DNA from: Thermomicrobiales bacterium
GTDB lineage: Bacteria > Chloroflexota > Chloroflexia > Thermomicrobiales > UBA6265
Assembly (NCBI GenBank): GCA_036558305.1
Contig: DATBFX010000341.1
Span: 6,101 to 70,100, forward strand
DNA length: 64,000 nucleotides
Reading direction: 5' to 3'
Below, piece after piece: positions 5,716-62,514 of this stretch. The translations under genes were made by a program, and so were the position numbers. The stretch's first letter is position 1, and each line of letters opens with the position of its first letter. Under the pieces are notes generated by a model that searched no databases, was not told the DNA's origin, and saw only the letters and a list, made by a program, of their open reading frames with translations.

Positions 5716-7434
5716 TCACGCCGTGACCACCGCCGCCGCGGCCGCCAGGTTCAACTCCTCGATGGCCTGCTCCCGCATCTTGTACTTCTGGATCTTGCCG
5801 GTGACGGTCATCGGGAACGACTCGACGAAGCGCCAGTGGCGGGGGATCTTGTAGTGGGCGATCTGGCCCTGGCAGTAGGCACGGAGTTCCTCTGGTGACG
5901 CCTCCTGACCGGGGTGGAGAATGACCCAGGCCATCACCTCCTCGCCGTAGCGCTCGTCGGGGGTCCCGATGACCTGGACGTCGCGAATCTTGGGGTGACC
6001 GTAGAGGAACTCCTCGATCTCGCGCGGGTAGATGTTCTCGCCGCCGCGGATGATCATGTCTTTGGCGCGGCCGACGATGTTGACGTAGCCCTCGGCGTCC
6101 ATCGTCGCCAGGTCGCCGGTGTGCATCCAGCGACCGGCGTCGATCGCCTCGGCGGTGGCGTCCGGATTGCCCCAGTACCCGAGCATCACGATGTAGCCGC
6201 GGGAGAGGAGTTCGCCCGGCTCGCCGCGCGGGACGACCCGACCGGTCAGGCGATCGATGATTTTGCACTCGACGTGGTCGTGGACGCGGCCGACGGTGCT
6301 GACGCGTTTGTCGATGGGATCGTCGGTCGTGCTCTGGAACGAGACGGGCGAGGTTTCGGTCATGCCGTAGCAGATCGTCACTTCCGTCATGTGCATCTTC
6401 TCGAAGACCTGCTTCATCACCTCGACCGGGCAGGGGGCGCCGGCCATGATCCCGGTGCGAAGGGACGACAGGTCAAATCGCGCGAACTCGGGGTCCCCAA
6501 GCATCGCGATGAACATGGTGGGCACCCCGTGGAGAGCGGTGCAGCGTTCGGCCGCGACCGTTTCCAACGTCAGGCGAGGGTCGAACACCGGGGCCGGAAT
6601 GACCATCGTCGCGCCGTGGGTGACGCAGGCGAGGTTGGCGAGCACCATCCCGAAGCAATGGTAGAAGGGAACCGGGATACAGAGGCGGTCGCGTTCGGTG
6701 AAGCGCATCCGCTCGCCGATAAAGAACCCGTTGTTGAGGATCGAGTGGTGGGAGAGGGTGGCGCCTTTGGGGAAACCGGTCGTCCCGGACGTGTACTGGA
6801 TGTTGATCGGATCGTCGAACGCCTGCTCGCTTTGCCTGGTCGCCAACTCGTCGGCGGAGACGGACTCGCCCGCATCGAGCACGTCCTGCCAGGTAAAGGC
6901 ACCGGGGACCGATTGACCCCCGAATGCGATGACGGTGCGGAGATCGGGAACGCGCTCCGACCGAAGGCGGCCGGGTTCACAGTCGTCGAGTTCCGGGCAG
7001 ACCTCACGCAGCAGCGCCCCGTAGTCGGACGTCTTGAACGGCGGACCGATGATCAGCGCGGAGCATCCGGACTGGCGCAGCGCGTATTCGAGTTCGCGCA
7101 CGCGGTAGGCCGGGTTGATGTTGACGAGGATGGCACCGATTTTCGGGGTGGCGAATTGGGCGATCACCCACTCGACGTGGTTCGGCGACCAGATGCCGAT
7201 GCGGTCGCCTTTTTTCACGCCGAGGGCGAGCAGACCACGGGCGAACCGATTGCAGGCATCCCGGAGGTCGCCGTAGCTGAGCCGAACCCCCTGTTGGCGG
7301 GAAACGACCGCGTCATTGTCGGGGAACTGCACCGCGACGCGGTCGAAGAGTTCGCCGATGGTGGCGCCGATGAACGGCACGTCGCTGGCACCGTGGACGT
7401 AGGAGAGCGATCGGTCGTGGAGAGCCAGTGTCAT
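5716..7434 (-). CDS. AMP-dependent acyl-CoA synthetase/ligase (ACSF2/FadD-like)
   Basis: 572 aa with the AMP-binding signature [50 protein letters not shown] and the C-terminal [13 protein letters not shown]. Confidence 0.9.
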
Positions 7435-26860: not shown

Positions 26861-27141
26861 TCCCGCCGGGCGTCGAAACGCGGCGAGGACGTGACGGAAG
26901 TACCCGGCAGCCCCGCGTTCAGGCTCCTCACCGGCTCCTGGCTACCGAACCGGCGGGCCGCCGGGGCTCAATCGTATGGACCTTTGCGATTAGACGGGAC
27001 GAGGTCACCGTCGCGACGCGAATCCAGGACCAAGATCGCCCCTCGCCGACGCCCGCCGCGTCTTGGGGGACGTACAATTCGTCGCAACGGGTTCGCGGTC
27101 CGCCGATGGCGGCCGCCCGGGCCTTACCAAAGGAGCGGTCA

Positions 27142-28278
27142 ATGCCGACCCGATCCAAGAAACCTCCCGCCAAAGCCGTCCAAGACGCGTTCCAGGCCGG
27201 AGCCGCCTCGCCGAACGGGAACGGCTCCCTCCATCTGCCGCTCGACCACGTCGACGTCGGCGCCGGCACGATCACCGCCACCGTCGCACCGCCTTCGACC
27301 GGCAGCGCCGGACTGCCTCATGAGTCCTTGCGGGAGATGTATTCCTTCATGGCTCTCGCACGCGCCCTCGACGAACGGATCTGGCAACTCAATCGCTCCG
27401 GCAAGGCGCCCTTCGTCGTCTCCGGTCAGGGTCACGAAGCGGCCCAGGTCGGCGCCGCCTTCGCCCTCGATCGCGACAACGACATCATCATCCCCTACTA
27501 CCGCGATCTCGCCCTTTGCCTCGTCTTCGGCCTCACCGCGCGCGACGTGTTGATGGGCGTGTTGGCCCGCGCGGACGACGCCGTCTCCGGGGCGCGCCAG
27601 ATGCCGGCCCACTACGGCTCGGCCAAACGGCGCATCATCAGCGGTTCCAGCGTCGTCGGCACCCAGATCCCGCAGGCGACCGGTACCGCCTACGCCGCCA
27701 AACTGCGGCGCACCGGTCAGGTCACCCTCGTCGCCTTCGGTGAGGGCGCCACCTCCGAAGGCGATTTCCACGAGGCCTGCAACTTCGCCGGCATCCACAA
27801 GCTGCCCGTGATCTTCTTTTGCGAGAACAACCGCTACGCCATCTCGGTCCCCCAGGACAAGCAGATCGCCATCGACAACGTCGCCGATCGCGCCGCCGGT
27901 TACGGCTTCCCCGGTGTGGTCGTCGATGGAACTGATCTCCTCTCCGTCTACCAGGTGATCAAGGACGCCGCCGACCGCGCCCGCCGCGGCGACGGCGCCA
28001 CGCTCGTCGAAGCGAAGCTCTACCGCTTCCATCCCCACTCTTCCGACGACGATGATCGCTTCTACCGCGATCCCCACGAGGTCAAAGCCTGGCGTGCCCA
28101 CGATCCCGTCGCCCGCTTCGACGCCCGTCTGCGCGAGCTCGGCGCGCTCGACGACGGTACCGCCGCCGAGATCGCCGCCCGCGTCAAACGAGAGGTGAAC
28201 GCCGCCACCGAGTCCGCCGAACAAGCACCACTCCCCGACCCCGCGACGTTCGATCGCCACGTCTACGCCGAGCGCTAG
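27142..28278 (+). CDS. 2-oxoacid (branched-chain type) dehydrogenase E1 component, alpha subunit
   Basis: ATG at 27142 after AGGAG (27131-27135). RQMPAHYGS, TPP-binding FGEGATSEGDFHEACNFAG...VIFFCENNRYAIS, and YRFHPHSSDDDD. Track ORF 26599.. is an over-extension. Confidence 0.9.
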   Translation: MPTRSKKPPAKAVQDAFQAGAASPNGNGSLHLPLDHVDVGAGTITATVAPPSTGSAGLPHESLREMYSFMALARALDERIWQLNRSGKAPFVVSGQGHEAAQVGAAFALDRDNDIIIPYYRDLALCLVFGLTARDVLMGVLARADDAVSGARQMPAHYGSAKRRIISGSSVVGTQIPQATGTAYAAKLRRTGQVTLVAFGEGATSEGDFHEACNFAGIHKLPVIFFCENNRYAISVPQDKQIAIDNVADRAAGYGFPGVVVDGTDLLSVYQVIKDAADRARRGDGATLVEAKLYRFHPHSSDDDDRFYRDPHEVKAWRAHDPVARFDARLRELGALDDGTAAEIAARVKREVNAATESAEQAPLPDPATFDRHVYAER

Positions 28279-28349
28279 CACCGGCGCTGGTTGTAGGGGA
28301 GGGCCCCGTGCCCTCCCGCGCCACCCAAACACGGCGCAAAGGATTGGCA

Positions 28350-29396
28350 ATGGTCCAAACGCTCGAACGGCCCACCGACCTCTCTCCAAACGCCGCGCGC
28401 GAAACCGGCACCCCGAACAAATCGCTGATCGAGGCGATCCACGACACCCTCCGCGACGAACTCCGCGCCGACGACCGCATCGTCGTCCTCGGCGAGGACG
28501 TCGGCCGGCGCGGCGGGGTCTTCCGCGTCACCGCCGATCTGCTGGAAGAGTTCGGCGAAGACCGCATCATCGATACCCCGCTCGCCGAGTCCCTCATCGT
28601 CGGCACCGCAATCGGCATGGCCCTGAACGGTTTGAGACCGATCGCCGAGATCCAGTTTCTCGACTTCATCCACCCCGCGATGGACCAGATCATGAACGAG
28701 GCCGCGCGCCTCCGCTACCGCTCGAACAACGATTTCAACTGTCCCCTCGTCATCCGCACCCCGTTCGGCGGCGGCGTCCACGGCGCCCTCTACCATTCCC
28801 AGAGTATCGAAGCCCTCTTCGTCCACACGCCGGGTCTCAAGGTCGTCGTCCCGGCCACGCCGGTCGACGCCAAGGGACTCCTTCGCGCCGCCATCCGCGA
28901 CGAGGATCCGGTCCTCTTCCTCGAACACAAGAAACTCTACCGCTCGATCAAGGGCCCGGTGCCCGACGGCGATTACGACGTTCCCCTCGGCCGGGCCCGC
29001 ATCGTCCAGGAAGGGACCGACGCCACCATCGTCGCTTACGGGCTGATGGTCCACGAATCCGAAAAGGCCGCCGCCGCGATCGCTCAGGAAACCGGCGCCA
29101 GCATCGAGTTGATCGATCTCCGCTCCCTCAAACCGCTCGACGAGGCCGCGGTCCTCGACTCCGCCAGGAAAACCGGCAAGGTCCTGGTCGTCACCGAAGC
29201 CAATCGCCTCTGCTCCGTCGCCAGCGAAATCGCCGCCCTCGTCGCCGAAGAGGCCTTTGCCTACCTCGACGCCCCCGTCATGCGCGTCACCGCCCCCGAC
29301 GTCCCCGCCATGCCCTTCAGCCCACCCCTCGAACACGCCTTCATGGTCGACGCCGAGAAGATCGGCGCGATGCTGCGCAAGCTCGTCGCGTTCTAG
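28350..29396 (+). CDS. 2-oxoacid dehydrogenase E1 component, beta subunit
   Basis: ATG at 28350 (MVQTLERP). VLGEDVGRRGGVFRVT, IDTPLAES, IQFLDFI and LRSLKPLD. Confidence 0.9.
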   Translation: MVQTLERPTDLSPNAARETGTPNKSLIEAIHDTLRDELRADDRIVVLGEDVGRRGGVFRVTADLLEEFGEDRIIDTPLAESLIVGTAIGMALNGLRPIAEIQFLDFIHPAMDQIMNEAARLRYRSNNDFNCPLVIRTPFGGGVHGALYHSQSIEALFVHTPGLKVVVPATPVDAKGLLRAAIRDEDPVLFLEHKKLYRSIKGPVPDGDYDVPLGRARIVQEGTDATIVAYGLMVHESEKAAAAIAQETGASIELIDLRSLKPLDEAAVLDSARKTGKVLVVTEANRLCSVASEIAALVAEEAFAYLDAPVMRVTAPDVPAMPFSPPLEHAFMVDAEKIGAMLRKLVAF

Positions 29397-29398
29397 CC

Positions 29399-29465
29399 GT
29401 CAGGCGCTAGGCGTTAGGAGAACGAACCGTTTCGTGCGCCTAACGCCTAACGCCTAGCGCCTGAC
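29399..29465 (+). repeat. intercistronic hairpin A with stems of tandem 7-nt units (gcctaac/gcctagc/gcctgac)
   Basis: gtcaggcgctaggcgttagg (29399-29418) is the exact reverse complement of cctaacgcctagcgcctgac (29446-29465). An extra gcctaac unit sits in the 27-nt loop. It starts 3 nt after the E1beta stop and ends 16 nt before the E2 ATG; GGAGG at 29472-29476 lies outside the stem. Confidence 0.9.
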
Positions 29466-29481
29466 GCCTCCGGAGGCCCGT

Positions 29482-30840
29482 ATGCCCACCCAAACGGCGA
29501 CCACGATTACGATGCCGCAACTCGGCGAGAGCGTGACCGAAGGGACGATCGGTGCCTGGCTCAAGCAGGTCGGCGATCGTGTCGAAAAGTACGATCCCCT
29601 GGTCGAGGTCGAAACGGACAAGGTCAACTCCGAGATTCCGTCGCCCGTTGCCGGGGTGCTCGTCGAAATCCTGATCGAGCCGGAGAGTACCGTCCCGGTC
29701 GGCGCCGGGCTGTGTCGGATCGACGAAGCGGGCGAAGGTTCGGTCCCCCCGGCCCCCCAATCCTGGGGGGAGAACGACGACCCGCAGTCTTCAGGGCCAT
29801 TCTCAAGAGCGCGACCCTCCGTCTCCCCCCAGGATTGGGGGGCCGGGGGGGCCGAAGCCGGGGGGGCCGAACCGCCCACCGAACTCGATCTCCTCCGCAC
29901 CCGCTCGTCACCGGCCGTCCGCCGTATTGCGGAAGAGCACGGTCTCGACATCGGCCAGATCGACGGTACCGGCATCGGGGGCCGCGTCACCAAACAGGAC
30001 ATCCTTGCCTACGTTGCCCAGATGCAATCCGCCGCTCCCGCCTCGGTGGAAACGACGGAGCGCGTCGTCGCGGCGCCGCCGGCACCGGCTGCCGTCCAGC
30101 CACCAGAACCGCGAGCGGCCGCGCGTCCCGCAATCCAGCCCTTCCCCGGCGACGAGGTCGTCCCGGTGACGCCGATGCGCCGGCAGATCGCCGAGCACAT
30201 GGTCCGCTCGGAGCGACTGGCGCCGCACGTGACGACGGTGGTCGAGGTCGACATGACCAACGTCGTGGCGTACCGCGCGGCCCGCAAAGAGGACTTTGCG
30301 CGACGGGAGGGAATCGAGCTCAGCTACCTGCCGTTCGCGATCAAGGCCGTCACCCTGGCGCTCCGCGATCACCCGCGGATGAACGCGGTCTGGGACGAAG
30401 AGCGCATCATCCACCGCAACGCGATCCACGTCGGCGTCGCGGTCGGTCTGGAGGACGGTCTGATCGTGCCGGTCGTCAAGCACGCCGATCGCCTCAGCCT
30501 GACCGGTCTGGCGCACGCCGTGGCCGACCTGATTGCCAGGGCCCGCGCCGGTAACCTGACGCCGGACGACGTCACCGGCGGCACCTTCACCGTCAACAAC
30601 CCCGGCACTTTCGGTTCGATTGCCTCCACGCCCATCCTTGTTCAACCCCAGGTTGCCATCCTCTCGACCGAGGCCATCGTCAAACGCCCCGTGGTCGTCG
30701 ACGACATGATCGCGATCCGGTCGATGATGAACCTCTCGCTCAGCTTCGACCATCGCGCCCTCGACGGTCTCGCCGCGGCCCGCTTCCTCCAACGGGTCAA
30801 ACGCTGGCTGGAGGGCGTGGACGACAAGATCGCCGTGTAG
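29482..30840 (+). CDS. 2-oxoacid dehydrogenase E2 component (dihydrolipoamide acyltransferase)
   Basis: Lipoyl domain (VEVETDKVNSEIPSP), PSBD (SSPAVRRIAEEHGLDIGQIDGTGIGGRVTKQDI) and a catalytic domain ending in SFDHRALDG. The linker contains the palindromic element listed separately. Confidence 0.9.
   Translation: MPTQTATTITMPQLGESVTEGTIGAWLKQVGDRVEKYDPLVEVETDKVNSEIPSPVAGVLVEILIEPESTVPVGAGLCRIDEAGEGSVPPAPQSWGENDDPQSSGPFSRARPSVSPQDWGAGGAEAGGAEPPTELDLLRTRSSPAVRRIAEEHGLDIGQIDGTGIGGRVTKQDILAYVAQMQSAAPASVETTERVVAAPPAPAAVQPPEPRAAARPAIQPFPGDEVVPVTPMRRQIAEHMVRSERLAPHVTTVVEVDMTNVVAYRAARKEDFARREGIELSYLPFAIKAVTLALRDHPRMNAVWDEERIIHRNAIHVGVAVGLEDGLIVPVVKHADRLSLTGLAHAVADLIARARAGNLTPDDVTGGTFTVNNPGTFGSIASTPILVQPQVAILSTEAIVKRPVVVDDMIAIRSMMNLSLSFDHRALDGLAAARFLQRVKRWLEGVDDKIAV
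29745..29850 (+). repeat. perfect 29-bp inverted repeat (MITE/REP-like element) embedded in-frame in the E2 linker
   Basis: ccccccggccccccaatcctggggggaga (29745-29773) and tctccccccaggattggggggccgggggg (29822-29850) are exact reverse complements separated by 48 nt. The arms translate as PQSWG and PQDWG. Confidence 0.9.
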
Positions 30841-33109: not shown

Positions 33110-33113
33110 CGGA

Positions 33114-33219
33114 GGCGGCAAGGCGGCAAGGCGGCGAGGCGGCAAGGACGATAAGAGACCGACGGACAGCTCCCGGATTCCTATTCCCTGTTCCCTTGCC
33201 GCCTTGCCGCCTTGCCGCC
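33114..33219 (+). repeat. intercistronic hairpin B: (GGCGGCAA)x4 - loop - (TTGCCGCC)x3
   Basis: Left arm 33114-33147 is ggcggcaaggcggcaaggcggcgaggcggcaagg. Right arm 33194-33219 is ccttgccgccttgccgccttgccgcc. About 22 bp can pair perfectly. It starts 5 nt after the SBP stop and ends 14 nt before the permease ATG. Confidence 0.9.
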
Positions 33220-33233
33220 TCGATTGAACTCCT

Positions 33234-43166: not shown

Positions 43167-43178
43167 TTCCGTTTGAGA

Positions 43179-43322
43179 GGCGGCAAGGCGGCAAGGCGGG
43201 AACCCGCCAGAGCGGGTGATGGCGGCAAGGATTTTCGAGCGGGCACCCAGTTCTGGCGCTCAATAGGCTCAATCATCCTTCGACCACTCCCCGCCGCCTT
43301 GCCGCCTTGCCGCCTTGCCGCC
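43179..43322 (-). repeat. intercistronic hairpin C: same GGCGGCAA/TTGCCGCC unit as hairpin B
   Basis: Plus-strand ggcggcaaggcggcaaggcgg (43179-43199) pairs over 21 bp with ccgccgccttgccgccttgccgccttgccgcc (43291-43322). A third ggcggcaagg at 43221-43230 allows an alternative pairing. In the sense of the minus-strand genes the element begins at the SBP stop and ends 12 nt before the permease ATG. Confidence 0.9.
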
Positions 43323-45007
43323 TACGACTCCACCCAAACGTCGTTGTACTGCGGGTAGAGCATCGTTTGCGTCGGCATCCAGCCGTGCACCTTCTTGTGG
43401 TTGACCCAGATCGCGTTCGAGGTCACCAGCGGAATCTTCGGCACTTGCTCGGCCCAGATCAACTGGGCCTTGCTCGCCGCGGCCTTGAGCTCCTCGTCGC
43501 TGCCGGCCTTCTGCCAGTCGTCGAAGGCCTTCAACAAATTGGGGATACCGCCGCTGTACTCCATGCTCGGGACGATCGAGTTGAAGAGCAGGATCACGTC
43601 CATCGGCGAGGACCAGAGCCACTCGTAGCCGAACGAATCGGGTGGGGAATCCTTGCTGTTGAGTTTGGTTCCGAATTCGGGATTCTGGTAACTCTCGACC
43701 TTCATGTCGGCGCCGACCTTCGCCAGCATACCGGCGACCGCCTCGCTGATCTGGGCGCCGAACGTCTGTCCGGACCAGTTCAAGTGCGTCCAGGAGAGCT
43801 TGACGCCGTTCTTGGCGCGGATCCCGTCCGAACCCTTCGCCCAGCCCTGGTCGTCGAGCATCTTGTTGGCGAGATCGAGGTCGAACTTGTTGAACTGCTC
43901 GACACCCGGGTCGTACCACTTCCAGTTGGACGCGATCGGTCCTTGCGTGGCGACCGCGTGACCGAAGTAGATCGCCTTGACGAGTCCTTCACGGTCGATT
44001 GCGTGGGAAATTGCCTGGCGCACCGCCAACTGGTCGAATTCCAGGTCCTTGCGCAGCCAGTTCAACGCAAGGAACGAGTTCGCCGGGTTCGCCCACTCCT
44101 GGACAACGAGATCGGGATTGCCCTTGAGGCGGTCGACGTCCTGCCCCGCCGGGTTCTTGATCGCGTCGACGTCGCCGGCTTCCATCTCATTCGCTCGGTT
44201 CGCCGCCTCGACGATCGGCACCCACTTCAACTCGTCGATGTAGGCCGGTCCCTTATTCTGGATGAACGGGCAGGCGGTACCCGGATAATCCGCCCACTTC
44301 GCCATGCGAACCTGACTACCGGGTGTAAATTCCGTCAGGGTGAACGGACCGGTGCCGTCTGCCGTCGTGGCGCCGTAGGTGTCGCCGGCAGCGGCGCGGG
44401 CGGCCTGGTTGTGGATCATCGAGTACTCGGTCGCCAGGGTCTCCGGGAACGCGGCGAACGGGTGCGCCATGGTCACGATCACCGTGTTGCCGTCGCCGGC
44501 TTTGACATCGGTGACGGTATTCCAGAAGATGGCGTTCTGACCGGTCTTGGGATCGCGGAACAGGTCGAAGTCCTCGACCACGTTCGCGTTGGTGCAGGGC
44601 GTGCCCGAGTGGAACTTCAATCCGTCCCGGATCTTGATTGTCCAGGTCAAGCCGTCGTCGGAGACGGTCCAGGAGTCGGCCAGCGCCGGAACGATCTTAC
44701 CGTCCGGGTCGCGGAGCATCACGTATTCGTAGAGCGCATTGTATCCCGGATCGGCCCAGCCGGAGAGTACCGGGTCCATCTTCGTGAAGTCGCGGTCGTA
44801 CCCTTCGGTGAACGTGCCGCCGGTTTGCGGCGTGTCCTGTGCTGCCGCGAGCCGAGGCGAAGCCGCTGCCAGGAGTGACGCCGCCGCCGGGGCGGAGACG
44901 CCGAGCAGCGCCGCACGCTTGACGAACTCGCGTCGACTCAACCCGGCCCGCCGGTACTCGTCGACCAGAGATCTCAGGCCGGTTCGTGGATCGATCCTGT
45001 CGCTCAC
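43322..45007 (-). CDS. ABC transporter substrate-binding protein, family 5, Tat-type signal
   Basis: LSRREFVKRAALLGVSAPAAASLLAAASPRLAAAQD is a twin-arginine-like leader. The SBP_bac_5 body follows. Confidence 0.88.
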   Translation of the reverse strand: MSDRIDPRTGLRSLVDEYRRAGLSRREFVKRAALLGVSAPAAASLLAAASPRLAAAQDTPQTGGTFTEGYDRDFTKMDPVLSGWADPGYNALYEYVMLRDPDGKIVPALADSWTVSDDGLTWTIKIRDGLKFHSGTPCTNANVVEDFDLFRDPKTGQNAIFWNTVTDVKAGDGNTVIVTMAHPFAAFPETLATEYSMIHNQAARAAAGDTYGATTADGTGPFTLTEFTPGSQVRMAKWADYPGTACPFIQNKGPAYIDELKWVPIVEAANRANEMEAGDVDAIKNPAGQDVDRLKGNPDLVVQEWANPANSFLALNWLRKDLEFDQLAVRQAISHAIDREGLVKAIYFGHAVATQGPIASNWKWYDPGVEQFNKFDLDLANKMLDDQGWAKGSDGIRAKNGVKLSWTHLNWSGQTFGAQISEAVAGMLAKVGADMKVESYQNPEFGTKLNSKDSPPDSFGYEWLWSSPMDVILLFNSIVPSMEYSGGIPNLLKAFDDWQKAGSDEELKAAASKAQLIWAEQVPKIPLVTSNAIWVNHKKVHGWMPTQTMLYPQYNDVWVES

Positions 45008-47038: not shown

Positions 47039-47548
47039 GTGACGGCGGCAACGATCGGGCAGGCGGACGAAACCAGGGAGGGCTGGCGCGGCAAGATCGG
47101 CCTCATGGACCAGCAGGAGATGGACGAGTTCCTGGTGGGCGGCAACCTCGCCCGGCTCGCCGTCCTCGACGACAAGGGCTGGCCCTATGTCCAGCCCGTC
47201 TGGTACCAGTGGGAGCCGAACGAGGGCGTCTTCTGGATCGTCGCCCGCAAGAAAAGCGCGTGGGCTGCCTTCATGCAACGCGACGGCCGCGTCGCCCTCA
47301 CCATCGATGGCGAGACCCGCCCTTATCGCAAAGTCGCCCTCCAGGGTACGGCCGAGGTCATCGAGGAACCGAACGTCGGCGGCGAATGGGTCGAGATTGC
47401 CAATTCGATGGCCACCCGCTACCTCGGCGAACACGGCCCCGACTACATCGTCCCCACTCTCGACAAACCGCGCTGGCTCTTCAAAATCACGCCGACCTCG
47501 CTGGTGACGTGGCAGGGCGTCGATTGGCACTCGCGGTACAAGGAGTAG
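47039..47548 (+). CDS. pyridoxamine 5'-phosphate oxidase family (split-barrel flavin/F420-binding) protein
   Basis: GTG at 47039 after AAAGGAG. MDEFLVGGNLARLAVLDDKGWPYVQPVWY and VALTID...RKVALQGTAEVI match the PPOX-like split barrel. Confidence 0.75.
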   Translation: MTAATIGQADETREGWRGKIGLMDQQEMDEFLVGGNLARLAVLDDKGWPYVQPVWYQWEPNEGVFWIVARKKSAWAAFMQRDGRVALTIDGETRPYRKVALQGTAEVIEEPNVGGEWVEIANSMATRYLGEHGPDYIVPTLDKPRWLFKITPTSLVTWQGVDWHSRYKE

Positions 47549-47690
47549 GCGGACAGACGGACAGACGGACAGACGGACGGACGGAGGACTTATGAACGCC
47601 AACGCAACGACCGACTCAGGTCTAGCACCGGGCAAGGCAGACGCGACTCGTTCTCCGCTGTCCGACTGTCCGTCTGTCCGCCTATCCGTC
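47549..47690 (+). repeat. hairpin D: (GGACAGAC)x4 - loop - (GTCTGTCC-type)x4
   Basis: Left arm gcggacagacggacagacggacagacggacggacgga lies directly after the TAG at 47546-47548. Right arm 47655-47690 is ccgctgtccgactgtccgtctgtccgcctatccgtc. 17 bp pair perfectly, plus 7 more after one mismatch. The annotated ATG at 47592 lies in the loop. Confidence 0.9.
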
Positions 47691-49181
47691 TTGCGTGAGG
47701 GCTTCGACTATCCCTTGAGCCGGCTCGATCCGTTCGGGGCGCACATCGACCCGCCGAGTGTCGCGCTCTACGAGACGATCGTCGTCAAGGGACCGGACGG
47801 AACGGCGCAGCCGGGGCTGGCCGAATCGTGGCAAATCTCGCGAGATGGGCTCGAATGGCGCTTCCGCCTCCGACCGGACGCACCGTTCCACTCGGGCGCA
47901 CCCTGCGACGCCGACGCGGTGGTCGCCGCGCTGGATCCCCTCCGGTACGACCACTTCAGTCCGCGACGCCAACTCTGGTACTGGGATCCGGTGGACACGG
48001 TCCGCGCCGAAGAGACCGACACCGTCGTCTTTACGCTCCATCACCCGTACGTGCGCCTGCCGTCTCTCCTCTGGGGAACCCACACGGCCATCTACAACCA
48101 AACACTTCGCTCGCAGGAACCCGAACGCTTCGGTTACGAACTCGCCGACGGGACCGGGCCGTTCCGATTCGTGAGCTGGTCGAAGGAACGCGTCGTCCTC
48201 GAAAGGTGGGCGGACTACCCCGGTTCGGCGGCTCCGTTCCTCGCGACGGGCGGTCCCGCCAGGCTGGACCGGATCGAATGGACGATGCTGCTCGATCCCG
48301 CGGAGCGCGTCGCGGCGCTGGACCGGGGCGACGTGGACTGCATCCACGGTCCACGTTACGCCGACGTCCCCCGCTTGGAGGCCGACTCGCGCTTCCACGT
48401 CGTCCGGTTCAGCCAGGCCGCGAACGCCTACCTGGCCCTCAACTGGCAGCGCACCGACCTCGGTTTCGATGACGTTCGCGTCCGCCGCGCCATCTCCGCC
48501 GCGATCGACCGCCCCCGTCTCGTCGAGGACGCGCTCCTCGGGTACGGCGTCCCGACCTTCGGTCCGCTCTCACCCGGCGGCGAGTTCTACGATCCCGCCG
48601 TCGAATCCGGTCGCGGCCACGATCCCGCCGCCGCCGGTCGCCTCCTCGACGAAGCCGGTTGGCAACTCGGTGCGGACGGTATCCGATCGAAGGGGGAGGA
48701 ACGCCTCTCCTTCGAGTGCGTGATCCAGGACGACGCGATCCATCAGCAGATCGCGATCGGTCTGCGCGACCAGTTGCGCTCCGTCGGTATCGTCCTCGAT
48801 CTCAGACCGATCCTGACCTTCAGCGGCTTCTACCAGACGGTCGCGAGCGGACCGGCCAGCTTCATCAACAAATGGCTCTGGCAAGACCCGGTCGACGCCG
48901 CGATCGGCTTCACCGCCTCCTGGGGCCGCCCGTTCCCGAACTGGCAGCACGCCGCGATCCCGCGTCTCGACGATGCCTACCGCGCCTGGCTTCAGGCCGA
49001 GACACTGGAAAGCCTCCAGGCCGCAGCGACGCAGGCCCAACTCATCGTTGCCGACGAACTGCCCTATATCCCGCTGCTGGTCCCGCAGGACGTCTGGGTT
49101 CATTCGACCCGCGTCACCGGCTGGGAGCCGGCCCAGGCGATCCTCTACCCGTTCTATCATCGGACCGAGGTGCGCGGGTGA
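47592..49181 (+). CDS. family-5 solute-binding-protein homologue without signal peptide
   Basis: The SBP_bac_5 body starts at LREGFDYPLSRLDPFG...ALYETIVVKGPDG. The 33 residues before it (from the ATG at 47592) are hydrophilic and partly encoded by hairpin D. The TTG at 47691 is an alternative start. Confidence 0.75.
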   Translation: MNANATTDSGLAPGKADATRSPLSDCPSVRLSVLREGFDYPLSRLDPFGAHIDPPSVALYETIVVKGPDGTAQPGLAESWQISRDGLEWRFRLRPDAPFHSGAPCDADAVVAALDPLRYDHFSPRRQLWYWDPVDTVRAEETDTVVFTLHHPYVRLPSLLWGTHTAIYNQTLRSQEPERFGYELADGTGPFRFVSWSKERVVLERWADYPGSAAPFLATGGPARLDRIEWTMLLDPAERVAALDRGDVDCIHGPRYADVPRLEADSRFHVVRFSQAANAYLALNWQRTDLGFDDVRVRRAISAAIDRPRLVEDALLGYGVPTFGPLSPGGEFYDPAVESGRGHDPAAAGRLLDEAGWQLGADGIRSKGEERLSFECVIQDDAIHQQIAIGLRDQLRSVGIVLDLRPILTFSGFYQTVASGPASFINKWLWQDPVDAAIGFTASWGRPFPNWQHAAIPRLDDAYRAWLQAETLESLQAAATQAQLIVADELPYIPLLVPQDVWVHSTRVTGWEPAQAILYPFYHRTEVRG

Positions 49182-49297: not shown

Positions 49298-50092
49298 ATG
49301 GCAGGACCGCGCTTGAGCGGCAGGACGGCGGTCATCACGGGCGGCGGGAGCGGATTCGGCCGGGCAACCGCGCGCCGCTTCGCCGAGGAAGGAGCCTCCA
49401 AAATCGTCCTCGCGGACATCCGCAAGGAGAAAGCGGACGAGGTCAAAGCCGAGGTGGAAGCACTGGGCGCGCAAGCGCTGGCGGCACGATGCGACGTCGG
49501 CGAGGTCGCCGCCTGCGAGAGACTGGTCGAAGACACCCTCACCTTCGTCGACGGCAAACTCGACATCCTCGTCAGCAACGCCGCCCCCTTCCACGGCCCC
49601 GAGTCGTTCCTCGAATTCCGCGACCAGACCTGGTTCGAGGACGTCGCAATCAACCTGACCGCTTCCTATGTCCTGGGTCAGCGTTGCGCCCGCGCGATGG
49701 CCAAGACCGGTGGCGGCGCGATCCTCTACACCACCTCGATCAATTCCCAGGGCGCCGGCGCCGGTTTCGCCTCCTACTGCGCGACCAAGGCCGGCATCGT
49801 CGGACTCCTCCAGGTGATGGCCGTCGAACTCGCCAAATACAACATCCGCGTCAACGCCGTCGGCCCCGGCCCGGCCGACACCCCTCGCTCCGTTCAACTC
49901 GTCGGCGAGGAGACGATGGAGCAATTCCGCAAGAAGTTCCCCGTCGTCCCCCTCAACCGGCTCGCCAGCGCCGATGACGTCGCCAACGCCTTCGTCTACC
50001 TCGCCTCCGACGAAGCCTCGTACGTCACCGGCCAAAACCTTATGGTCTGCGGCGGAGTCACAGCGTACGTCTACAACGTACCGGAGGAGTGA
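49298..50092 (+). CDS. short-chain dehydrogenase/reductase (SDR)
   Basis: AVITGGGSGFGRA (TGxxxGxG), NAAP, and the YCATKAG catalytic Tyr-Lys. ATG after AAAGGAG. Confidence 0.9.
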   Translation: MAGPRLSGRTAVITGGGSGFGRATARRFAEEGASKIVLADIRKEKADEVKAEVEALGAQALAARCDVGEVAACERLVEDTLTFVDGKLDILVSNAAPFHGPESFLEFRDQTWFEDVAINLTASYVLGQRCARAMAKTGGGAILYTTSINSQGAGAGFASYCATKAGIVGLLQVMAVELAKYNIRVNAVGPGPADTPRSVQLVGEETMEQFRKKFPVVPLNRLASADDVANAFVYLASDEASYVTGQNLMVCGGVTAYVYNVPEE

Positions 50093-50154
50093 GACGGACA
50101 GACGGACAGTAGAACGAGCCATTTCCGTCTGTCCGTCTGCCCGTCTGCCCGTCC
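50092..50154 (+). repeat. hairpin E: GGACAGAC-type units
   Basis: agacggacagacgg (50092-50105, starting at the last base of the SDR stop) is the exact reverse complement of ccgtctgtccgtct (50125-50138). The right arm continues gcccgtctgcccgtcc to 50154. The next ATG is at 50175, with GGAG outside the stem. Confidence 0.85.
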
Positions 50155-59613: not shown

Positions 59614-59747
59614 GGAACAGACGGACAGACGGACAGACGGACCAAGTCGACGACGAAGTCGCGATCACGCTTGTTACGACTGACGACCGACGGCTGACGG
59701 CTCTCCCTGTTCCGTCTGCCCGTCTGCCCGTCTGTCCGTCTGCTTCC
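59614..59747 (-). repeat. hairpin F: GGACAGAC-type units, spanning the 3' end of the Fur-family gene
   Basis: Plus-strand ggaacagacggacagacggacagacggacc (59614-59643) pairs with gttccgtctgcccgtctgcccgtctgtccgtctgcttcc (59709-59747), 15 bp perfect plus 7 more. The Fur-family stop (59674-59676) lies in the loop, and arm 59709-59747 is translated as ...KQTDRRADGQTEQ. Confidence 0.88.
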
Positions 59748-61591: not shown

Positions 61592-62443
61592 ATGACTTCT
61601 CACGCCATTCACCTCCAGCAGGTCTCCTGCGCGTACGACGCAACGGCGGTCTTGCGCGACGTTTCGCTCCGGGTGACCCCCGGTCAATTCGTCGGCATGA
61701 TCGGCCCGAGCGGCGCCGGCAAGACGACACTACTGCGCACGATGCTCGGACTGGTGCCGCGGGTCGATGGCGAGGTCGTCGTCGGTGGTCGACCCGTCGC
61801 ACCGGGACGGCCACCGGCCGGCGTCGGTTACGTCCCGCAAGTCGAGACGGTCGATTGGGGATTCCCGGTCAGCGTCGAAAACGTCGTCCTGATGGGCAAG
61901 GTCGGTCGGATGGGACCCTGGCCCTGGCCGAGCCGGGGCGACCGGCGCGAGGTCGCCGAAACGCTGGAGCGGCTCGGCATCGGCAAACTCGGCCACCGGC
62001 ACATCCGCGACCTGTCGGGTGGACAACAGCAACGGACGTTTCTTGCCCGCGCCCTGATCGGTCGCCCTCGGATCCTGTTCCTCGACGAACCGACCGCCAG
62101 CGTCGATATCAAGACCCGCGACGACATCCTCCACCTGCTCGCCCACCTCAACCGCGACGACGGCGTCACCACCGTCATGACCACCCACGAACTCAACACC
62201 GTCGCCGCTCACCTCCCCTGGGTCGTCTGCGTCAACGCCGGTGTCGTCGCCCAGGGTCCGCCGAGCACCGTCTTCACCGGGCCAATTCTCTCCCGCACCT
62301 TCGGCACCGAGATGCGGGTGATCCGCGACCTCGAAACCGGCAACCTCCTCGTCGCCGAAGCGGGGACGCACGGGCCGTTTTCGAGTCGTCAGTCGTCAGT
62401 CGTCAGTCGTCAGTTGCAGACGGGCGACTCGTCGGCCGCCTAG
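61592..62443 (+). CDS. metal ABC transporter ATP-binding protein (ZnuC-like)
   Basis: Walker A GPSGAGKTT, signature LSGGQQQR, Walker B LFLDEP. The C-terminal tail SSRQSSVVSRQLQ is encoded by hairpin H. Confidence 0.9.
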   Translation: MTSHAIHLQQVSCAYDATAVLRDVSLRVTPGQFVGMIGPSGAGKTTLLRTMLGLVPRVDGEVVVGGRPVAPGRPPAGVGYVPQVETVDWGFPVSVENVVLMGKVGRMGPWPWPSRGDRREVAETLERLGIGKLGHRHIRDLSGGQQQRTFLARALIGRPRILFLDEPTASVDIKTRDDILHLLAHLNRDDGVTTVMTTHELNTVAAHLPWVVCVNAGVVAQGPPSTVFTGPILSRTFGTEMRVIRDLETGNLLVAEAGTHGPFSSRQSSVVSRQLQTGDSSAA

Positions 62444-62510
62444 AAGGAGACTCCGACTATGCGCATTCTTGCCTGCAACGACTATCGACTGACGACTGAC
62501 GACTGACGAC
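62385..62510 (+). repeat. hairpin H: (GTCGTCA)x4 - loop - (GACTGAC)x3-4
   Basis: 62385-62409 is the exact reverse complement of 62486-62510 (25 bp). A second 7-bp pairing joins gttgcag (62413-62419) and ctgcaac (62473-62479). The left arm lies inside the ATPase coding end (stop 62441-62443). The right arm ends 4 nt before the permease ATG at 62515. Confidence 0.9.
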
Positions 62511-62514
62511 TTGC

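Follow-up and report, generated by a model that had tools for sequence, protein, structure and literature searches.

A G/C-rich palindromic repeat family with an in-frame copy in the inter-domain linker of a Thermomicrobiales E2 acyltransferase

The gene for the E2 dihydrolipoyl acyltransferase of a branched-chain 2-oxoacid dehydrogenase in a Thermomicrobiales bacterium (GenBank assembly GCA_036558305.1) carries a perfect inverted repeat within its reading frame, which raises the question of what this palindrome is and how it persists inside an apparently functional enzyme gene. The gene was analyzed in a 64,000-nt stretch of contig DATBFX010000341.1 (positions 6,101 to 70,100), referred to here as the window. 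In the best explanation the repeat belongs to a G/C-rich palindromic family that is dispersed and non-autonomous, and this copy of it has been inherited in the linker and translated ever since; we give this reading a probability of about 0.8. An initial annotation, made from the sequence alone, had proposed an element resembling transposable elements of the miniature inverted-repeat type (MITEs) or repetitive extragenic palindromic (REP) sequences that is tolerated in a flexible linker. The family copies and the palindromic DNA of orthologues described below indicate that this proposal was essentially right.

The E2 palindrome and its dispersed relatives

Two 29-nt arms (29745-29773 and 29822-29850) were perfect reverse complements with 48 nt between them, at exactly the positions annotated initially. 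A repeat finder extended the complementarity to 35-nt arms with 97% pairing (34 Watson-Crick pairs and one G-T), and looser outer pairing was seen between 29737-29753 and 29857-29873. The very stable mRNA hairpin envisaged in that annotation was also predicted by folding. The RNA of the element gave -112.3 kcal/mol (z = -7.7) and the DNA -60.3 kcal/mol (z = -7.5), with 0 of 200 shuffles equally stable in either case. Each arm contains one copy of the 18-mer CCCCCCAATCCTGGGGGG, for which 0.07 matches with up to 3 mismatches are expected per 64-kb window, and the two arms were the sole C6-N(4-8)-G6 hairpins in the window. This expectation and the fold z-scores show that the palindrome is not due to chance.

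When genomes were scanned for the exact 18-mer, using one genome per species, more than 107 stretches matched, which is a lower bound. The core with the same flanks occurred in Chloroflexota, Cyanobacteria and Armatimonadota. Among the 80 loci listed, 54 were from Chloroflexota (Anaerolineae, Ardenticatenales, Thermomicrobiales and Chloroflexia), 17 from Cyanobacteria, 6 from Armatimonadota and 3 of other or unknown origin. Copies with the same arms, a search for which had been suggested initially, were thus numerous in other genomes, other Thermomicrobiales included. Several single metagenome-assembled genomes (MAGs) each contributed many contigs with copies, and two such contigs came from the Thermomicrobiales genome encoding the E2 orthologue P0005. 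The known copies of the core were mostly intergenic.

The consensus of the family unit, derived from 123 copies, was G-CCCCCC-YNG-CCCCCCAATCCTGGGGGG-A-R, and both arms in the window fit it. Its flanks were conserved, positions -9 to -4 being C in 80-93% of copies and +1 being A in 83%. An inverted partner lay within 150 nt of 79 of the 123 copies; the spacing of the 18-mers was most commonly 13 nt and ranged from 7 to 109 nt, that of the window pair being 54 nt. The element thus usually consists of two inverted units around a variable spacer, in the manner of a REP doublet. Two loci from other Thermomicrobiales MAGs (L045 and L037) shared the architecture of the E2 copy, C7-GG-core-AGA-(40-70 nt)-TCT-core-CC-G7. 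Since loops matched neither the loops of orthologues and other family copies nor one another, there is no master copy.

No copies of the 18-mer were found in a scan of viral contigs. With Rfam 15, only generic miRNA-hairpin matches far below threshold were obtained for the window at permissive and gathering thresholds, and nothing was found over the repeats at 16 loci from the three phyla. Full-text literature searches, of incomplete coverage, returned only unrelated and apparently chance matches to the core (both orientations) and to the MITE termini described below, and nothing relevant to this family among reports of repeats in Chloroflexi. We therefore provisionally regard the G/C-rich palindromic family as undescribed. 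It appears to comprise palindromic mobile repeats able to live in frame inside genes, and so to be a new family of a known kind of element.

Other arrangements of the unit were also observed. Head-to-tail arrays of two to three units in the same orientation, as against the usual inverted pair, occurred in L094 (5669-5762), L054 (45-104), L068 (43-102) and L089 (2018-2087). L054 and L068 are from Armatimonadota, and the L068 array is open in a frame reading repeated SPQDWGAGGA. Five cyanobacterial loci (L027, L048, L080, L085 and L112) had a common right flank, (C)TAATGCAGAGT, just beyond the outer G-run, which suggests that a larger lineage-specific element may surround the core in cyanobacteria.

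A 121-160-nt MITE with the termini GTWACTRCTCAG ... CTGAGYAGTWAC had the double hairpin as its core in Anaerolineae and Ardenticatenales and in JBDRGC, a Chloroflexota MAG that is unclassified. Perfect 8-bp target-site duplications flanked, among others, the copies at L051 (4919-5049), L075 (1278-1409), L104 (6663-6793), L111 (5116-5247) and L039 (7356-7515). Direct repeats of 8 bp with 7-8 positions matching were found in 10 of 15 MITE-form copies (shifted controls, at most 5). These duplications indicate that the MITE form is probably moved by a transposase making staggered cuts. Thermomicrobiales and cyanobacterial copies, the E2 copy included, were bare cores without MITE termini; the GTWACTRCTCAG termini were absent from the whole window, and the E2 arms are themselves the inverted repeats. 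The bare core may spread in a manner similar to REP sequences and their REP-associated tyrosine transposases (RAYTs), the nearest model. The only recurrent neighbouring genes near copies encoded two-component regulators, a common and unrelated family.

Open reading frames (ORFs) reading through copies were checked with Pfam in a sample that was partly hand-picked by eye. Besides E2, seven proteins had recognised Pfam domains on both sides of, or around, the copy. It lay between the NACHT domain and the HEAT repeats of a NACHT/HEAT-repeat protein (L090), between the membrane and ATPase domains of a Chloroflexota ABC exporter (L021), between the N and C domains of an aldehyde ferredoxin oxidoreductase (AFOR; L107), and within the domain in an amidohydrolase (L031) and a FAD-binding oxidase (L035). 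In two cyanobacterial nSTAND1 NTPases (L020, at ~1655, and L055, at ~7119) the copy occupied an equivalent position within the Pfam domain, with Walker A on one side and the DQFEEFFF motif, which resembles Walker B, on the other; this reflects either an old insertion common to both or a site that is preferred. Two more proteins (L011 and L081) had a recognised domain on only one side. A further batch, taken from genomes of high GC content, gave mixed results, with L052 and L091 as plausible terminal-region cases and with the copy at or upstream of the likely start in L069, L098 and L010. Most coding copies shared the E2 frame (PQSWG / PQDWG), which, given the partial choice by eye, is suggestive. 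A phmmer search with the 48-aa peptide against 1.84 billion representatives gave no matches, the short biased query being assumed to score too low, and the 44-aa peptide of the element, used as query in a protein search by word index, returned one candidate only, which was uninformative.

The ABC exporter gene showed a further feature. Its in-frame spacer between the two units (L021, ~7070-7260) consisted of five tandem 27-nt repeats (PDIRQPRGE x5), so that the spacer can expand by tandem duplication while still translated.

Fates of the element among E2 orthologues

Homologues of the E2 protein, from Thermomicrobiales and further Chloroflexota, were annotated as 2-oxoisovalerate dehydrogenase E2. 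When the proteins were aligned, PQSWGE ... SPQDWGAGGAE with a variable middle was seen in the closest orthologues (72-84% identical), and the PQSWG / PQDWG motifs were carried by P0001-P0008, P0010 and P0013. Among these, P0006 and P0007 had a single fused APQSWGAGGAE and P0008 only a remnant of the element. In P0023, an orthologue outside this list, the element was entirely gone. More distant E2 orthologues had unrelated linkers of similar length. The segment is therefore not simply the extra insertion of ~35 aa first supposed, but now makes up most of the linker. In a distance tree of the domain columns, the element-bearing E2 genes grouped as a single clade, inside which the collapsed forms and the empty one also fell; this points to a single ancestral insertion in E2, probably followed by vertical inheritance. 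The idea of a landed element thus holds as regards the insertion, which is neither recent nor private but ancestral to the E2 clade.

The DNA of six E2 orthologues was examined, and in all of them the palindrome was found at the identical site, preserved to a varying degree (fold z = -10 to -1.2). It was perfect across 31 nt in L001, good in L006 and decayed in L002, L003 and L007, the hairpin of L002 being essentially gone (z = -1.2). L004/L005 and L196 had one hairpin with a 19-bp stem and the loop AATCCT, which corresponds to the window form less 72 nt between TGGGGGG direct repeats. The P0023 gene showed an exact absence of 102 nt relative to its sister P0013, a deletion that takes out the palindrome, outer C-run through outer G-run. 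Both the 72-nt collapse and the 102-nt loss are multiples of three and kept the frame. A metagenome scan for E2 relatives yielded one additional close locus, a duplicate of L005, and none of the more distant E2 loci carried the core. The orthologues that share the segment are thus still palindromic at the DNA level.

The element corresponds to aa 86-131 and lies wholly within the first inter-domain linker. The Pfam boundaries (Table 1) support its initial placement between the lipoyl domain and the subunit-binding domain. They were used because an AlphaFold2 model from a 31-sequence alignment was poor throughout (mean pLDDT, a per-residue confidence score, of 46) and uninformative on linker disorder. 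The lipoyl-lysine (TDKV) and catalytic DHRxxDG motifs were invariant across the protein alignment, and the E2 gene therefore looks functional. Translation gave PPAPQSWGE for the left arm and SPQDWGAGGAE for the right, in agreement with the near-identical peptides PQSWG and PQDWG noted initially, and the predicted linker peptide over the element includes ...PQSWGENDDPQSSGPFSR....

By six-frame translation the whole window element was free of stop codons in five of six frames. In the unit as it occurs in Thermomicrobiales, all six frames lack stop codons; some spacer variants common in cyanobacteria (CTA and TAG) introduce a stop into one of them. Long ORFs in other frames or on the opposite strand cross the element at 29454-30002 (-), 29712-30554 (+) and 29624-29911 (-), the first of which, 182 aa long, is the open antisense frame that the initial annotation had recorded. 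Since high G+C content and a stop-free palindrome yield such ORFs, they are not evidence of genes.

Passenger or functional element

In the reading that we prefer, one copy would have entered the lipoyl-to-E3-binding linker of E2 in an ancestor of the Thermomicrobiales clade, and would since have been inherited vertically and translated as part of E2. A stop-free Thermomicrobiales unit and a Pro/Gly/Ala-rich translation offer a simple reason why linker insertions survive; tolerance in E2 would further be helped by the likeness of such peptides to natural E2 linkers and by a site needing only a flexible tether. Point decay, collapse to a single hairpin (72 nt) and loss of the whole palindrome (102 nt) would then be later fates in separate lineages. 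The copy is thus probably a passenger that the enzyme tolerates, rather than an adaptive element.

Several observations weigh against this reading. No further family copy was found elsewhere in the 64-kb window. The E2 copy had no target-site duplication, and adjacent direct repeats of at least 5 bp were present in 0 of 24 bare copies. An autonomous insertion sequence with the MITE termini was not found among the fetched loci. A search for a RAYT homologue with E. coli RayT as query, covering ~0.8 Mb of loci and the window, gave a best E of 0.95 with tblastn and nothing at E <= 1 with phmmer. Mobility of the bare core is suggested by its distribution, and translation of the segment within E2 by conservation of the ORF. 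A pure passenger should moreover decay, yet the window arms match the consensus though synonymous sites are saturated in comparison with the most divergent orthologue, L006, and the passenger model alone does not account for this persistence.

Across the orthologues, the arms were 71-91% identical to those of the window (76-91% without the decayed right arm of L007) and the loops 42-55%. Third-codon positions were 71-92% identical in the arms and 43-67% in the domains, the arms significantly exceeding the domains in each orthologue compared (p = 2e-6 with L006 and 0.02-0.045 with the others). This excess at third positions indicates that the constraint on the arms acts at the level of nucleotide sequence.

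Arms conserved at synonymous sites well above the gene background, next to a drifting loop, would be expected if the hairpin, whatever its origin, were a selected cis-acting element, for example a translational pause between the lipoyl and binding domains, a site of mRNA stability or processing, or a target bound by a conserved factor. Most orthologues still have a significant hairpin, conservation of the core extends over three phyla, and several copies in other proteins likewise lie at domain boundaries. In addition, two C:G pairs have both become T:A in L001, where the stem is free of internal breaks, and both of these double changes are amino-acid-changing. However, simple tolerance equally predicts the domain-boundary position, and the hairpin was essentially lost in L002, collapsed in P0006 and P0007 and deleted in P0023, with the genes otherwise intact. 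The covariation test was null, with 84.7% of cells paired compared to 84.6% in shuffles and 3 double changes against 2.1 expected; 32 unpaired cells stood against 17 changed-but-paired cells, about as random substitution would produce. Selection on base pairing was therefore rejected, and we consider a selected cis-acting hairpin unlikely.

L001 was the sole orthologue with concerted-looking changes. Inverted repeats are known to be both generated and homogenised by template switching (PMC8794818, PMC8604942), and such homogenisation would explain the L001 changes without selection. Conversion from other family copies is not general, because the E2 copy in the P0005 genome has decayed while two other copies there retain perfect cores, and because the loops match neither one another nor those of other copies.

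An outside chance is given to the proposal that the core is a sequence-specific functional module of the three phyla, read by a conserved factor or acting on the translating ribosome, with the domain-boundary copies retained as beneficial. If this were true, in-frame copies at boundaries (lipoyl/binding domain, NACHT/HEAT, membrane/ATPase and AFOR N/C) would help multi-domain proteins by providing ready-made linkers, translation pacing or both, and the synonymous-site conservation of the E2 arms without preferential pairing would be explained.

It is very unlikely that the encoded peptides (PQSWGE ... SPQDWGAGGAE) gained a linker role at the protein level that keeps the arms. Among the orthologues with DNA, the Trp was kept in five of six left arms and six of six right arms, and the shared frame of most coding copies, in the partly hand-picked sample, also fits such a role. 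However, peptide selection does not explain the conservation of synonymous third positions, the changes A->V, A->T, S->F and D->N were tolerated, and the segment was dispensable in P0023 and halved in P0006 and P0007. Unrelated proteins show the same peptides simply because the DNA element encodes them.

It is highly improbable that no mobile element is involved and that the high G+C content of the genome simply yielded an ordinary linker, Pro/Ala and then Gly/Ala, whose palindrome was sharpened by local template switching of the kind cited above. The codons for PPAP and GAGG (CCC/GCC and GGG/GGC) are indeed intrinsically reverse-complementary, but the non-trivial CAATCCTGG / CCAGGATTG centre with exact flanks recurs, mostly between genes, at over 100 loci of the three phyla, and outgroup E2 linkers are without such sequence; chance codon complementarity was rejected on the grounds of this recurrence. 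An assembly artefact in the form of a fold-back chimera, which the initial annotation had raised, has a negligible probability, because although library or assembly errors can produce palindromes, this one is mid-contig and in frame, and orthologues in independent JGI, ENA and NCBI assemblies of different sources carry it at the same site.

The coordinates of the features in the window are given in Table 1; E2 is the third gene after those for E1-alpha and E1-beta.

Table 1. Features of the E2 locus and its palindromic element (positions in the window)
Feature	Position	Strand	Basis or remark
E1-alpha gene	~27139-28278		
E1-beta gene	28308-29396		
E2 dihydrolipoyl acyltransferase, branched-chain 2-oxoacid dehydrogenase type, 452 aa	29482-30840	+	ORF list; Pfam Biotin_lipoyl / E3_binding / 2-oxoacid_dh
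Lipoyl domain, aa 8-80	29503-29721	+	Pfam PF00364, E = 5e-21
Whole palindromic element, outer complementarity included (GGTTCGG...CCGAACC)	29737-29873	.	Encodes GSVPPAPQSWGENDDPQSSGPFSRARPSVSPQDWGAGGAEAGGAE; inverted repeats, fold, six-frame translation
Left arm, 35 nt	29739-29773	+	TTCGG-TCCCCCC-GG-CCCCCCAATCCTGGGGGG-AGA; fits family unit G-C6-YNG-C6AATCCTG6-A-R
Core 18-mer CCCCCCAATCCTGGGGGG, left copy	29753-29770	+	Itself a 6-bp stem with 6-nt loop
Loop/spacer, 48 nt	29774-29821	+	Unique sequence, small internal stem; encodes NDDPQSSGPFSRARPS
Right arm, 35 nt	29822-29856	+	TCT-CCCCCCAGGATTGGGGGG-CC-GGGGGGG-CCGAA
Core 18-mer, right copy	29825-29842	-	Match on minus strand
Perfect 15-nt tandem duplication (GCCGGGGGGGCCGAA x2, encoding AGGAE AGGAE)	29842-29871	+	Outer end of right arm; partly shared with L001
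Peripheral-subunit (E3) binding domain, aa 142-175	29905-30006	+	Pfam PF02817, E = 3e-15
Catalytic acyltransferase domain, aa 224-445, DHRxxDG intact	30151-30816	+	Pfam PF00198, E = 5e-83; invariant columns

The window also contained a second and more abundant class of hairpins, which were intergenic (29395-29469, 33112-33221, 43178-43323, 47546-47691, 50092-50153, 59617-59743 and 62384-62511). The six that were folded had RNA free energies of -50 to -91 kcal/mol. Their arms were inverted arrays of tandem 7-8-nt units (TAGGCGC, AGGCGGCA, AGACGGAC and AGTCGTC), some of which recurred at several sites. The E1-beta/E2 spacer of orthologues had the same architecture with other units, namely TTGCCAG in L001/L002, AGTCGTC in L003 and AGCCGCT in L004. 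These hairpins presumably resemble the heptamer arrays of cyanobacterial short tandemly repeated repetitive (STRR) sequences.

Comparison with known palindromic elements

The interest of this case lies less in the single locus than in the family that it revealed and in an unusually clear evolutionary series. The E2 insertion is dated and vertically inherited, and its fates (intact, decayed, collapsed and excised) can be traced in an enzyme with a well-understood linker. It thus offers a system for asking how mobile DNA serves as a source of inter-domain linkers, how palindromes are kept up over long times, and how a 30-nt unit that leaves no duplication footprint moves. A practical consequence is that PQSWG / PQDWG segments of low complexity, where proteins of Chloroflexota or cyanobacteria contain them, should be annotated as repeat-derived.

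In behaviour, the family comes nearest to the Rickettsia palindromic elements (RPEs), palindromic repeats found in frame inside unrelated genes (Ogata et al. 2000, 2002, as described in PMC10969869). A review of MITEs treats RPEs as the standout selfish palindromes in functional genes and their occurrence elsewhere in prokaryotes as merely conceivable (PMC10969869). A comparable family is now seen in free-living G/C-rich bacteria of three phyla, with copies in enzymes, transporters and STAND NTPases. As far as that description goes, both are dispersed palindromic repeats of ~100-150 bp, in frame in unrelated and apparently functional genes (here seven proteins besides E2), which encode a recognisable conserved peptide (here PQSWG / PQDWG) at fold-compatible positions and have no identified transposase. 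By the same description, RPE hosts belong to one genus of reduced intracellular bacteria, whereas the hosts here are free-living, G/C-rich and spread over three phyla; in the present family the conserved unit, set around a free spacer, is also much shorter (~30 nt), and its core occurs inside a MITE with terminal inverted repeats and target-site duplications as well. The composition and the hosts, compared by description only, make homology very unlikely, and we regard RPEs as an analogue and not as a group to which the family belongs.

In architecture, the family is closest to REP sequences and their paired form, REPINs (PMC3116915, PMC3733652). Shared features are an imperfect-palindrome unit (20-40 nt; ~30 nt here), many copies per genome, arrangement mostly as inverted doublets around a less conserved spacer that fold into one long hairpin, and a bare form without target-site duplication. 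REPs inside genes have also been documented (PMC3733652). However, REPs are defined by a GTAG (or CGTC) end tag (PMC3733652), and RAYT is a tyrosine transposase like those of IS200/IS605. Such a tag was not general here; the spacer between the runs of the unit is Y-N-G (reverse complement C-N-R) and reads GTAG in no more than a minority, L041 and L079 among them. The family further differs in that no RAYT was found in the loci and window searched, that the spacer of 7-109 nt is not fixed per family, and that the core is near-identical across phyla, while REP families are usually lineage-specific.

The Anaerolineae/Ardenticatenales form is like other bacterial MITEs (Correia/NEMIS, ERIC, RUP and Nezha; PMC10969869) in its size of 121-160 nt, its terminal inverted repeats, its 8-bp duplications, its non-coding nature and its many copies, and in-frame fusions of MITEs with host ORFs are known (PMC10969869). 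In contrast, the E2, other Thermomicrobiales and cyanobacterial copies lack termini and duplication and have only the internal G/C-rich double hairpin.

Two further parallels come from mitochondria. Coding palindromes of Nematomorpha (PMC6649704) are likewise long, near-perfect inverted repeats in functional genes with both arms translated. Those palindromes lie in conserved protein regions and form no dispersed family, whereas the arms here are a dispensable linker and a multi-copy element. The G+C clusters of yeast mitochondria are short, G/C-rich, palindromic, dispersed and apparently mobile, and one of them is optionally present in frame in var1; they differ from the present family in their AT-rich organellar genome and unrelated sequence. 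Taken by analogy, the family would thus stand closest to RPEs in behaviour and to REPINs in architecture, with one sub-form that corresponds to a standard MITE.

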